A stretch of 63,997 nt of DNA, filler included, from Reclinomonas americana ATCC 50394 (GCA_048213135.1; 11 parts of 6 records of this genome joined end to end with filler, not necessarily neighbours in it), one strand, 5' to 3'. Shown: positions 10,386 to 17,359, counted from the first letter of the whole stretch. Numbers and translations: made by a program. Notes: generated by a model from the letters alone, not told the origin.

Positions 10386-13300
10386 TTACACGGGAGAGTC
10401 GCGGTCCTTCATCTCGCCCATTTCGTTGTCGGCCTGCAGTAGACTGCCTGACCGGCCGCGTTGGTGCATGTCACTGTCGCCGTGACGTTTTTCGTACGCC
10501 TGCACCGTGGGGAAATAAAAGGCAAGGGCAAAAACAGTCACAAATGAGGACTCGTGGTCAATAGCAGCCGCACAAAAACTCACATCAGTCTCCACCGTTG
10601 ACCTCGCCACCGGAATCTTATACGGAGCTTGTTGAGCAAACGGCAATATCATGACCAGGTAGCCTGATAAACAAGAAAGACACGAGAATGTGAGCATGTG
10701 CGCGTATTGGTAAGCAGCATACGACTCAAAGTGCGCACCGATTGGGAAACTGATGAGACCCGTGATGATGCAGCCCATCCATTGCACAAAAGTCAGTTGG
10801 GCAGTCTGCACGAGTTGGCAGCACATGATGAGAATCAACGGCGGCACAGTTCCGACGCAGACCACTGCACTTCGAACCTTGGCAAAGGAGCCGAGGAACT
10901 GCACCATGATAAACTGGCCAATGATGATGAGGATCACCATGATGACAAACCAGAGACCATCAAAGACGCCCGAAAAGATGTTCAGCTCTACATCAGATGG
11001 CGTGAGGAGAAGCGGCATCGAACATGCGCGTATGATAACTCTTGCATACACACACCATCCGTCATCTTTCGCGAGTTGAAAATGTTGCAAATCTGGAGCC
11101 AGACAAACGAGTTGAAGATGATGGTGTAGTGCACACGGCTGTCCTTCTGTACGCCGTAAATGCTGTGGCCGATAAACAGGAGGGCCATCAGAATGGCGAT
11201 CTGTTGTCGCGCCATGTACACAAAAGAGATTAGTCACTGGTATGCCACTCACTCACTCGTGAGCGCACGCGATCGCTTGCCCGCTCACCTGCAAGATGCC
11301 TTGCGCGATAATGTTCTTGAACATGCGAGCAGTGATGAGTGGAGCATCGCGACCGTATCTAAATAAAAGAGAGAACAATTTTGGAGATGAGTGAACTGTG
11401 GAGGGAGAGAGGGGTGCAGCAGTGCCACGCAACGGTGGTCGGTACAACAGATCCGGTGTCGGCGGCTCCGTGGCCAAGGCCAGCGCGGCCAGAGAGTCCA
11501 TAATGAGGTTCACCCACAAGAGTCTGCAGAGATGATGAGAAAGTGTGGAGAAGCGCAACGAATAACTTGTTGAATGAACTACGCAACTGCACAGCATTCA
11601 GCGGGTAATCCTCAAGCTGCACACACTTGGACAGGAAGGTAATGGCGCACGCCACAAAGTTGATGGTGAGCTGGAACTGGAGGAACTTGCGAATGTTGTC
11701 AAACACACTGCGGCCCCAGACGACAGCGCGCACAATCGAGGCAAAGTTGTCGTCCATGATAATAATCTCTGCGTTCAAGTGTCAGGCCAAGCGAGAACCT
11801 CTCCGTGCGAGAAAAAAAAGTGGCGCAACTCGACGCCTCCTTCGCCACATCAGTGCCCGCAATACCCATGGCCAGACCCACGTGGGCCTTTTTCAGAGCC
11901 GGGGCATCGTTCGTGCCATCACCTGTCACTGCCACAATCTCGCCGACTTCTTTCAGTCTGCACGCACCACACCACCACAAAGTGAGAAACACATACAAGG
12001 AGCGTTGATCGACAACAAACACACAAGAGTCACGCACGTTGAGACCATCAAGAACTTGTCCTCGGGCGACGAGCGGGCCAGCACTTGAATGTCGCGAACA
12101 ATCTTGCGCAGCTCGGCCTTGCTGAGCTTGCGGAAATCGGGGCCCTCCATCACGCGGCCACCAGTGTAAATGCCGCACTCGGCAGCAATCTTGCGCGCCG
12201 TGTGCACGTCTGCACATGAGGCGTGTTAAGTGCAAGAACACGACATAGGGTATCCTCGTGCCAGCATTTGAACGCAACTGTCACCAGTGACCATACGCAC
12301 AGTGATGCCGGCCTGGCGGCAATCGCGCACGGCCTGCGGCACTTCCGGACGCAGTGGATCCTGTGGAGAGAGGAAGAGGGAGAGAGGGAGAGAGAGGCCA
12401 TATGAATACGGACGCCGCACACACTCGTCTTCTCGTGGCACACAAGCTCCACATACCTCAATGCCCACAATGGCGTAGCAAATGAGATCACGCTCCAAGT
12501 TATCGTAATCGTCCTCCCAGTTCTGCTCCGACGGGAAGTGGCGGTACGCGCAGCAAATGGTGCGTAGGGCTGCCGATTGGAGAAGGGAAGGAGGGAGAAA
12601 GGGGGAGAGAGAGAATAAGCATTGCACAGAGAACAAAATGGCGAATCATGACGACCAAACACACCTTCATCAGCCATGCCCGTGATGCGCTCCAACATGA
12701 GGTTGCGCGTTTGGTCGTCCATATCACGCACGTTGCCGCTCGCATCCATGTAGCGTGAGCACATTTCGAGGACGATTTCCGAGGCGCCCTGCGGTGATAA
12801 GAGAATGTGATGAGAAGGAGCGAGGGCAAGGGGGGAAGGGGGTACCAGGGGAAGGGCGAAGGGGTTGGGGGAAAGGAGAGGGAGAGAAAAAGAGAGAGGG
12901 AGAGGAAAAGGNNNNNNNNNNNNNNNNNNNNNNNNNNNNNNNNNNNNNNNNNNNNNNNNNNNNNNNNNNNNNNNNNNNNNNNNNNNNNNNNNNNNNNNNN
13001 NNNNNNNNNNNNNNNNNNNNNNNNNNNNNNNNNNNNNNNNNNNNNNNNNNNNNNNNNNNNNNNNNNNNNNNNNNNNNNNNNNNNNNNNNNNNNNNNNNNN
13101 NNNNNNNNNNNNNNNNNNNNNNNNNNNNNNNNNNNNNNNNNNNNNNNNNNNNNNNNNNNNNNNNNNNNNNNNNNNNNNNNNNNNNNNNNNNNNNNNNNNN
13201 NNNNNNNNNNNNNNNNNNNNNNNNNNNNNNNNNNNNNNNNNNNNNNNNNNNNNNNNNNNNNNNNNNNNNNNNNGGGGAGGAGAGAGGGAGGAAGAGAGAG

Positions 13301-16300: not shown

Positions 16301-17359
16301 TCAGAGAGCCCACAGAGCAGGAGAGGAGAGGAGATGAGCTCGCGGAGGAAGAGGGGGGAGGGAACGCATGATACTCAGGGAACAACAAAGGAATGCCATT
16401 CGAGAGCGCGGGTGACGAGCCAAGAAGATGGTCGCGAGTGAAGGATAACGGGTCAGAGAGCCCACAGAGCAGGAGAGGAGATGAGCGTGCGGAGGAAGAG
16501 TGAAGTGTGGAAGGCGTGCGGCACGAACGAGAGAGGAGAAGGCCCACAAAGATGTAATCAGTACACAATCTCCCAAAATCCCCCATTCGCAAATCACGAA
16601 GAAGCAGCAGCAGAGGAGAATGAGCAACAACAGCGAAAGAATGCCGACGTTCACGCGGAGTGAAATCATGTCCTCGTCCTCCCACACAAAAGCGACAAAC
16701 TAATCCCGAAACAACACACGCGGCATGCACAATCTCACGCACACAGCGATCGAGACAGGAGCGGAGAGAGAAAGAGGCACACAAGAGACAGAGGGCGCGA
16801 CATTTCCGACACACACAAAAAAACAAAACTGAACGCCCGCTCAGCAGCAGCAGCACCACAAGCCCCGCGACAAGTGAGAGAAAGAAAGAAGAGCGAGAGA
16901 GGGCGAGAGAGCGAGGAGAGAAATGATTCTGTGTGCGACCTCAAATTCGACAGTGGCCGCCAATTTCCCAGAACGGCAAGTAGGCACACCGCGACGCGCT
17001 GGCGATCGCCCCCTCTCTCCCCAGCAACACAGAGACACACACAACAGTACACGCACAGACTGGGCACAAGCACGCGAGAGGAAAAAGCAGACAAGTGGAG
17101 TCAAACACATTGATTTGAGGTGTGCGCACACACTTTGCTCTCTTGTGTGCGCACGTGTGTGTTTGAGATGCGTGTGCGCGTGTATGTGTGTGTGTGAGCG
17201 CAACTCTCGATCCTTGATAATCGCCATGAGCGTCTCCTTCAACATGGGGTCGAAGCGCCCATTGGACGACTCAGCCTACACAACGCAAACGTGTGAGCAA
17301 ACACACACGCGCTCACAAGAGTGCTCAACACACACACGCACCATATCGACGGTCGTCAT
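10386..17359 (-). CDS. PMCA: P-type IIB Ca2+-transporting ATPase (PMCA/ACA type), ~23 exons
   Basis: Spliced motifs [88 protein letters not shown]. Start MTTVDM at 17359. Confidence 0.95.

Follow-up and report, generated by a model that had tools for sequence, protein, structure and literature searches.

A Near-Invariant Class of Splice Donors That Never Follows an Exon-Final G in a 64-kb Window of Reclinomonas americana Suggests Donor Reading One Base out of Step

Results

The stretch of DNA analyzed here ("the window") comprises 63,997 nucleotides (nt), filler included, of Reclinomonas americana ATCC 50394 (GCA_048213135.1; 11 parts of six records joined end to end), and all counts below refer to this one 64-kb window and to four to ten genes in it. 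The introns of these genes are many, short (median about 70 nt), and CT-rich on the sense strand. Where the others begin with the usual GTNNGT, about a third of them have an almost constant GTTGCGT at their start, and the exon base that precedes this second kind of splice donor (position −1) is never G. The donor span in which the first-pass annotation had located the pattern, 11433 to 17204, falls within the gene for a plasma-membrane-type Ca2+-ATPase (PMCA), on the minus strand at 10386 to 17227, for which tblastn, reading of the gene strand, and spliced alignment give 22 exons and 21 introns. P-type ATPase signature exons are visible in a six-frame reading of the region, and tblastn places exons collinear with P0001 and P0002, the two homologues retrieved by protein search, between about 15.4 and 10.7 kb. 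The first exon and its intron (17204 to 15919) were placed by a codon-bias gene predictor and hand reading only. In this intron a stretch of about 120 nt is present in two similar copies (each with …gggtcagagagcccacagagcaggagagg…; 16040 to 16520, minus strand), a local duplication.

Donors were counted in four conserved genes rebuilt for that purpose: the calcium ATPase, an endoplasmic reticulum-type HSP90 (24.7 to 28.5 kb, plus strand), RPB2 (42.1 to 45.2 kb, plus strand), and CYFIP (46.1 to 54.4 kb, minus strand). Junctions were set by a spliced protein-to-DNA aligner run with BLOSUM62, with introns restricted to GT..AG, YAG acceptors mildly favored, and neither a donor motif nor an exon-end term; as GT..AG was imposed, the intron ends are not an independent test of the GT-AG rule. 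Two (PMCA), five (HSP90), five (RPB2), and seven (CYFIP) homologues were aligned, the sides of assembly gaps being run separately, and PMCA was additionally read by hand on the gene strand. Removal of the introns restores the reading frame of conserved proteins in all four sets of alignments, and the spliced translation of HSP90 matches the 80%-identical homologue P0005 without gaps, with mostly identical residues at all eight junctions. A strict subset was defined as the donors picked by 2/2 PMCA homologues, 5/5 HSP90 or RPB2 homologues, or at least 5/7 CYFIP homologues; it omits 16 donors, including two read by hand, two within GT runs, and those at 14659, 46537, 25994, and 44312. The codon-bias predictor, which is blind to motifs, was exact for 9/14 validated junctions on the plus strand and 24/31 on the minus strand (33/45 in total). 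It makes known errors (e.g., at 14957, 12655, and 12055); its normal donors were excluded, and nine shifted donors that it predicts serve as secondary support. The junctions at 14659, 46537, 26991, 53452, 44312, and 42551 are ambiguous. Two sites were left aside: the RPB2 donor at 42551 (C/GTTGCGC, 2/5 homologues, the slash marking the cut), which competes with 42566 (3/5) and was omitted from all counts, and the HSP90 donor at 25582, which conflicts with 25994 and was omitted from the homology-placed set.

In PMCA, 9 of the 21 introns counted have the unusual donor, in agreement with the 9 of about 22 originally claimed. In gene order these lie at 17204, 15802, 14941, 14659, 14099, 12278, 11829, 11587, and 11433 and follow A, T, T, A, A, A, A, A, and C, respectively. 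The donor of the 1,285-nt first intron (GTTGCGC, 17198 to 17204) is covered by no homologue and comes from the codon-bias predictor. The next (GTTGCGT, 15796 to 15802) was picked by the predictor and one of two homologues, the other falling short of it. Both homologues chose GTTGCGT at 14935 to 14941, at 12272 to 12278, at 11581 to 11587, and at 11427 to 11433, as well as GTTGCGC at 11823 to 11829. They likewise agreed on GTTTCGT at 14093 to 14099, directly upstream of the exon with the phosphorylation site, where the alignment score is 300 against 273 for the next candidate. The GTTGCGT at 14653 to 14659, which opens a 350-nt intron in a weakly conserved stretch, was found by hand reading and the predictor and was not the aligner's choice; it ranks first among the candidates for P0002 and third for P0001.

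The 12 normal donors of PMCA comprise 10 that follow G, together with C/GTGCGT at 12037 (12032 to 12037, both homologues) and T/GTGAGT at 10583 (10578 to 10583, hand reading only). Among those after G, both homologues placed GTGAGA at 15630 to 15635, GTGAGC at 15105 to 15110, GTGTGT at 12659 to 12664, and, with the mild YAG preference, GTTTGT at 13817 to 13822 (without the preference, 13818 is chosen). One homologue placed GTTTGT at 13544 to 13549 (in whose intron there is a gap of Ns), GTATGT at 12451 to 12456, GTGAGC at 11283 to 11288, GTGTGT at 11050 to 11055, and GTTCGA at 10872 to 10877. The last, GTGCGC at 10733 to 10738, was read by hand, the alignment of P0002 stopping at 10736.

The same unusual donors recur on both strands in the other three genes. 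HSP90 has C/GTTGCGT at 25994 to 26000, placed by the gap-free alignment of its spliced translation to P0005, and four that all five homologues support: A/GTTGCGT at 26483 to 26489, A/GTTTCGT at 27158 to 27164, C/GTTGCGT at 27319 to 27325 (these three also gap-free against P0005), and A/GTTTCGT at 27866 to 27872. RPB2 contributes A/GTTGCGT at 43553 to 43559 (5/5). In CYFIP, on the minus strand, A/GTTGCGT at 51892 to 51898 was chosen with 6/7 homologues, A/GTTGCGA at 49948 to 49954 and T/GTTGCGT at 48425 to 48431 with 7/7, and T/GTTGCGT at 46531 to 46537 with 3/7 and the predictor.

Taken over the four genes, every one of the 52 homology-placed donors belongs to one of two classes. The normal class (34/52) has G at +5, its hexamers being GTGAGN (13), GTGCGN (6), GTGTGT (5), GTTTGT (4), GTACGN (3), and others. 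The second, or shifted, class (18/52) has the form GTT[G/T]CG[T/C/A], in which +3 is T and +6 is G, and consists of GTTGCGT (13), GTTTCGT (3), GTTGCGC (1), and GTTGCGA (1). The two classes differ sharply in the last exon base: G stands at −1 in 30/34 normal and 0/18 shifted donors (Fisher P = 1.7e-10), and in 19/22 versus 0/14 in the strict subset (P = 1.8e-7). The four normal donors that lack it (three after C, one after T) all have GTGCGT or GTGAGT; one of them, CGC/GTGAGT at 26301, had been cited in the first-pass annotation as an instance of a normal donor without −1 G and is placed there by 5/5 homologues. Nine more shifted donors come from the codon-bias predictor (9192, 18567, 25582, 32451, 34760, 63116, 54236, 38610, and 17204), and none follows G, so that −1 G is found in 0 of the 27 supported cases. 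The rule that the shifted class never follows G is thus confirmed within the window, for 27 donors and not the approximately 37 first reported, some ten more sense-strand words being candidates only. Exon ends before shifted donors are A in 11, T in 4, and C in 3 of the 18, more A than a 25% expectation would give (binomial P = 0.001). Normal donors have A at −2 in 16/34 and G in 8/34.

The position of the cut is fixed by homology. At the HSP90 junctions 25994, 26483, 27158, and 27319 the spliced translation aligns to P0005 without a gap, so the cut there is exactly N/GT. A GC donor 3 nt downstream (NGTT/GCGT), the only alternative that preserves the frame, would add one residue and is excluded at those four junctions by the gap-free alignment; it also scores lower at PMCA 11829 and at 11587 (227/234 for the two homologues, against 238/245 for GT), and at 14659 the comparison gives no decision (231 versus 225 and 218 versus 219 for the two homologues). 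A cut one base downstream of the assigned site (NG/TT) would break a reading frame that homology fixes on both sides.

Word counts that do not depend on gene models point the same way. HGTTGCGT (H being A, C, or T) occurs 27 times in the window against 5.98 ± 2.24 expected, a 4.5-fold enrichment that none of 100 shuffles reached, and GGTTGCGT, its counterpart with G, occurs once against 1.74 expected, the background level. Opposite that single word (57772 to 57779, plus strand), the minus strand has a predicted exon beside the intron 58034 to 57970, and the word is apparently not a donor. Words in which GTTGCG is followed by A, C, or G are preceded by G in 10/34 cases, compared with 1/28 for GTTGCGT (P = 0.009). 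Mapped genes contain 25 of the 28 GTTGCGT words, all in sense and none in antisense orientation, and the other 3 fall outside the gene map. That the two classes stem from gene modeling or chance would have in its favor that the junctions were inferred from DNA sequence and protein homology, that some are ambiguous, and that the aligner allowed GT..AG only. This explanation is nonetheless extremely unlikely: neither aligner nor predictor used a donor motif or the −1 base, the contrast holds in the strict subset, motif enrichment and strand bias are model independent, and the HSP90 junctions are free of gaps.

Two occurrences of the motif in CYFIP (minus strand) stand apart from the donors counted. 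A GTTGCGC that follows G (51003 to 51009) is read through inside an exon and not used as a donor; 3/7 homologues align as far as 50985, and a donor at 50988 (G/GTTTGT) is set by the predictor. A second GTTGCGT, after C (48393 to 48399), stands 32 nt downstream of the GTTGCGT donor used at 48431, within the same intron, and may be a tandem or decoy donor.

Apart from the donor, introns of the two classes are alike. Median lengths are 70 nt (shifted) and 72 nt (normal), intron phases are distributed in the same way (P = 0.43), and pyrimidine content is 0.66 versus 0.68. A branch-like CTVAY motif is present in 16/18 shifted and 25/28 normal introns (41/46 overall) at 19.5 and 23 nt, respectively, from the 3′ end (P = 0.12), and (G/A)CAG acceptors are common to both classes, with GCAG or ACAG in 39/46 introns. 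The shared length, branch motif, and acceptor argue that one spliceosome handles both. They also bear on the idea that the shifted introns are a type of their own, either a divergent U12-type or a mobile introner family bringing its own GTTGCGT end. A conserved donor without exonic consensus, beside a degenerate major class, does recall the U12/U2 dichotomy. Against it stand the likeness of the classes in branch-like motif, distance to the 3′ end, pyrimidines, acceptor, and length, the absence of a visible TCCTTAAC-like branch site from the intron 3′ ends, and the lack of internal similarity among shifted introns: in 42 introns of at most 150 nt, 9-mers are shared by 2/120 shifted-shifted pairs, 19/325 normal-normal pairs, and 13/416 mixed pairs. 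A separate intron type is therefore largely refuted within the window, and we regard it as very unlikely.

The shifted motif is nearly invariant, with T+3 in 18/18, G+4 in 15/18, C+5 in 18/18, G+6 in 18/18, and T+7 in 16/18 donors. At the normal position equivalent to C+5, i.e., +4, the bases are A (13), T (11), and C (10), and the difference in C is significant (P = 5e-7); T at +6 is present in 22/34 normal donors. No GTTGAGT, GTTTTGT, or GTTGTGT donor occurs among the 52, though these would correspond to the most frequent normal donors (GTGAGN, GTTTGT, and GTGTGT). A single heptamer G-(G/T)-T-N-N-G-T, which had been offered as fitting both classes, therefore fits neither well: it is too strict for the normal class, where T+6 is far from general, and too permissive for the shifted class, where the two free positions read [G/T]C in 18/18.

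The notion that the shifted donor frees the exon end from coding constraint is weakly indicated. Of 17 shifted donors of assigned phase, 14 would need an amino acid change to acquire a −1 G, as the notion would have it; 3/5 of those in phase 0, however, could take G synonymously, and intron phases do not differ between the classes.

Besides the four genes used for donor counts, the window contains a protein kinase gene (18.5 to 23.8 kb, plus strand), a NACHT/WD40 gene (30.8 to 35.9 kb, plus strand), an NPL4-like gene (36.7 to 40.1 kb, minus strand), and smaller genes, including one of the DUF962 family; these names come from reading translated segments. A long intron of the kinase gene holds a minisatellite (21674 to 22305, plus strand) whose translation consists of repeated units. 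In a stretch between genes, GAT/GTTGCGGAG is found in three copies at 56814, 57006, and 57195 (minus strand), a spacing of about 190 nt that points to a tandem repeat with units of this length. The 7-mer spectrum of the window is dominated by (GA)n/(CT)n, GAGAGAG and CTCTCTC occurring 836 times each.

Several irregularities concern the assembly. The N-terminal exon of RPB2 (41509 to 41875, minus strand) is opposite in strand to the rest of the gene (42263 to 45177, plus strand) across a gap of 20 Ns (42044 to 42063), most probably because the scaffold is inverted or misjoined there; the alignment ends at about residue 720 to 885 of homologues of about 1,030 to 1,195 residues, so the gene lacks its 3′ part. 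HSP90 lacks the stretch matching residues 376 to 642 of the 844-residue P0005 at an assembly gap (27467 to 27687, with N runs at 27516 to 27615), where sequence is missing or collapsed. Eleven gap structures in the window consist of two 44-N runs with exactly 12 bases between them, which looks like an assembly or masking artifact, and longer N runs are present besides.

Discussion

The mutual exclusion of the shifted donor and a −1 G suggests that the splicing machinery reads shifted introns one base out of step. We favor, with somewhat less than even confidence, an explanation in which the U1 small nuclear RNA (snRNA) 5′ end pairs with the shifted class one nucleotide out of register and the cut still falls before GT. 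One major-type spliceosome would then remove two kinds of introns, alike except for the donor. Donors of the ordinary kind, with the degenerate form G/GTNNG(T), would depend on the last exon G plus G+1, T+2, and G+5. In the second kind, the nearly invariant (A)/GTTGCGT, the intron's G+1 would take the slot of exon G−1, the exon base at −1 (mostly A) would take the −2 slot, T+3 would stand in for T+2, and G+6/T+7 would stand in for G+5/T+6. The scissile bond would be set by the catalytic core and not by U1, leaving the cut before GT.

Two features of the data accord with a displaced register. With the shift, exon position −1 would face the U whose usual partner is −2, which predicts A at −1, as seen in 11/18 shifted donors (compare 16/34 with A at −2 in the normal class); together with T+3 and G+6 in all 18 and the absence of −1 G, this matches a consensus displaced by one base, as in shifted-register donors. 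A shifted duplex would also have a forced mismatch at T+2, requiring that all other positions pair, which would explain why the class is so nearly invariant. In humans, according to Burge and Karlin as described in PMC8283771, loss of +5G makes −1G almost invariant; here the reverse holds, which argues that the canonical register cannot apply to the shifted class.

Duplex energies are less accommodating. The canonical U1 5′ end is ACUUACCUG. With a U1-like 11-mer 5′ end, CA/GUUGCGU has its minimum-energy duplex in the shifted register, with a 1x1 mismatch, at only −2.7 kcal/mol. Several results weigh against a simple U1 account. Canonical U1 pairs with GUUGCGU at −1.1 to −3.6 kcal/mol in any register, the shifted duplex falling from −2.7 kcal/mol with A at −1 to −1.1 with C or U; and GUUGAGU, which canonical U1 would bind at −7.1 kcal/mol, is never found as a donor. 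No mirroring of the exon is seen one base farther upstream either, the shifted donors having G (9) or C (7) at −2 in most of the 18 cases and the normal donors A (17) or C (8) at −3 in most of the 34. The avoidance of G at −1 exceeds what the shift alone would give, as 0/18 is to be compared with the 8/34 normal donors that have G at the corresponding −2 position (P = 0.04), and 0/27 has a binomial P of 0.001. Nor was an RNA partner seen: Rfam gave no match in the window at gathering thresholds, hence no spliceosomal snRNA, and at E ≤ 1 the 15 weak matches were all microRNA- or small Cajal body-specific RNA-like and on repeats, again with no spliceosomal snRNA.

The weak pairing with canonical U1 implies that the partner RNA differs from textbook U1 or that another factor reads the motif, and the invariant C+5 predicts a reader with G at the facing position, either a U1 whose 5′ end is remodeled or a second variant of U1. 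We infer, therefore, that if U1 reads the shifted class in a displaced register, it would be a U1 or variant with G opposite C+5, a non-textbook 5′ end. Even this does not settle the exon end, and the following also counts against the displaced register. With a hypothetical ACGCACC end, N/GUGCGU pairs at −10.6 to −10.9 kcal/mol and the shifted site at −7.8 to −10.6, energies so similar that they fail to explain why non-G exon ends go with 18 shifted donors and only 4 normal ones; a −1 G leaves the shifted duplex unweakened (−10.7 kcal/mol with the hypothetical end), so its absence needs a further cause. One possibility is that G/GTTGCGT, being a single T deletion away from an optimal G/GTGCGT with the mRNA unchanged, would not be kept; a second is that the U5/U6 stage imposes a constraint.

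That second possibility can be carried further, to a dependency acting wholly after U1: U5 loop 1 and the U6 ACAGAGA box would position the scissile bond, and an extra intron base would be tolerated only when there is no exon-end G for U5. PMC8283771 argues that U1 by itself does not account for the human −1G/+5G association, in which U5 and U6 also take part, and the duplex energies above give no U1-based reason against −1 G. The scheme is purely conceptual, leaves the invariant C+5 unexplained, and strikes us as quite improbable.

The excess invariance of the shifted class invites a different division of labor, in which there are two U1-type snRNAs: a conventional one would read G/GTNNGT, and a variant fully complementary to AGUUGCGU would read the shifted class. 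Such a variant would carry A for the C that faces G+1 and G/C for the two pseudouridines, amounting to a dedicated donor code in the major spliceosome. A class almost invariant over seven to eight positions, with C+5 in 18/18, beside a degenerate normal class, looks like perfect pairing, and no single 5′ end that we tried suits both: canonical U1 binds GUGAGU at −11.0 kcal/mol and GUUGCGU at best at −3.6, and a hypothetical ACGCAAC end binds the shifted motif at −12 to −15 and GUGAGU at −2.4 to −5.0. Variant U1 snRNAs exist in humans, as outlined in PMC3561869 and PMC10870369. Yet Rfam found no snRNA gene in the window, a perfectly matched variant would tolerate −1 G (−14.2 kcal/mol) and so leaves its avoidance unexplained, and it would bind GUUGAGU (−9.2) as well as GUUUCGU (−8.2), of which only the latter is found. 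We consider two U1 species unlikely, if somewhat less so than the reading discussed next.

That reading keeps G+1 and T+2 paired normally, with U1 and later with U6, and lets one T of +2/+3 bulge out, so that the motif would be GT-GCGT with a T added. Removing one T from GTTGCGT or GTTTCGT indeed gives GTGCGT or GTTCGT, both seen as normal donors; PMC4856993 predicts a +2/+3 bulge at 68 among 201,541 human donors; and some bulge seems unavoidable at the U6 stage, where the G-T that pairs with U6 lies one base farther from the cut. The exon end speaks against it. A helix weakened by a bulge should favor −1 G, as the same U1 cytosine faces −1, whereas −1 G is found in 0/18 shifted donors (0/27 with predicted ones) against 30/34 normal donors; the A preference at −1 is left without explanation; and the bulged structure is the energy minimum only with G at −1. 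It is a rather unlikely account.

Against this background, two proposals made at the outset find partial support. That the intron's G+1 substitutes for exonic G−1 in snRNA pairing agrees with the A at −1 and the exclusion of −1 G and is at odds with C+5, the weak canonical-U1 duplex, and the excess avoidance of G. That there is one recognition word with two cleavage positions is reasonable in view of the shared 3′ signals and too simple in view of C+5 in 18/18 against C+4 in 10/34. A broader formulation, doubtful at present, is that two parallel donor codes coexist in one spliceosome, a degenerate G/GUNNGU and a near-invariant A/GUUGCGU, with the exon-final base deciding which is used and the second being read by a remodeled U1 5′ end or a second U1-type snRNA; about a third of the introns would then form a third kind of intron, distinct only at the donor.

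If true, the displaced register would make about a third of the donors a natural experiment on how the U1 binding site relates to the cut site and on why an exon-final G is conserved. It makes predictions about the sequence of the U1 5′ end, about the genome-wide absence of G/GTTGCGT donors, and about conversion of either class into the other through gain or loss of one T upon a change of the exon end. In practice, about one in three junctions of this organism would be misplaced by gene finders that had learned from GTNNGT-type donors with −1G.

Among the open-access papers listed in our searches, no title or abstract describes such a donor class in any organism, though the organism's genome paper may do so, and of the papers listed for GTTGCGT, GUUGCGU, GTTGCG, or GUUGCG none is on splicing by title or abstract. 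A PMCA exon compared with metagenomes gave 25 loci, the best at 46 to 47% identity and none close enough for a comparison of intron positions.

The nearest known parallels are U1 registers in humans. A shifted register has been established experimentally for rare human donors, as summarized in PMC4856993 and PMC9311317, and the validated noncanonical registers together make up 1.5% of 201,541 human donors by the figures given in PMC4856993. Like those described by Roca and Krainer (2009), as summarized in these two papers, the donors here have GU with an extra base, G-U at +6/+7 instead of +5/+6, and the cut at GU; G+1 would again occupy the −1G slot next to an exon-end A, as in the model oligonucleotide ACA/GUCAAGUAUA quoted from PMC4856993. 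Unlike them, to judge from the same accounts, this register would be no rare exception (18/52 donors), and its sequence is not GUUAAGU-like and suited to textbook U1 but GUUGCGU, with an invariant C+5 and with −1 G excluded outright. The bulge +2/+3 and asymmetric-loop registers (Roca et al. 2012; Tan et al. 2016, PMC4856993, as there summarized) also have a U after GU and a consensus displaced by one base; those, however, keep the G+1/U+2 slots and gain from −1G, which here is never present. The human −1G/+5G dependency, as presented in PMC8283771, resembles our case in the strong tie of the exon-final base to an intronic G position, with the sign reversed: without +5G, human donors almost always have −1G, and the donors here never do. 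U12-type introns share the near-invariant donor without exonic consensus beside a degenerate major class; they differ in their donor consensus, to which the donor sequence here is unrelated, and in that here the 3′ signals are identical to those of the major class and the class takes up about a third of the donors, a share well beyond what U12-type introns usually reach. Shifted-register behavior as such is known; what sets the present case apart is the size of the class, an invariant motif of its own that departs from textbook U1, and the all-or-none rule at −1.

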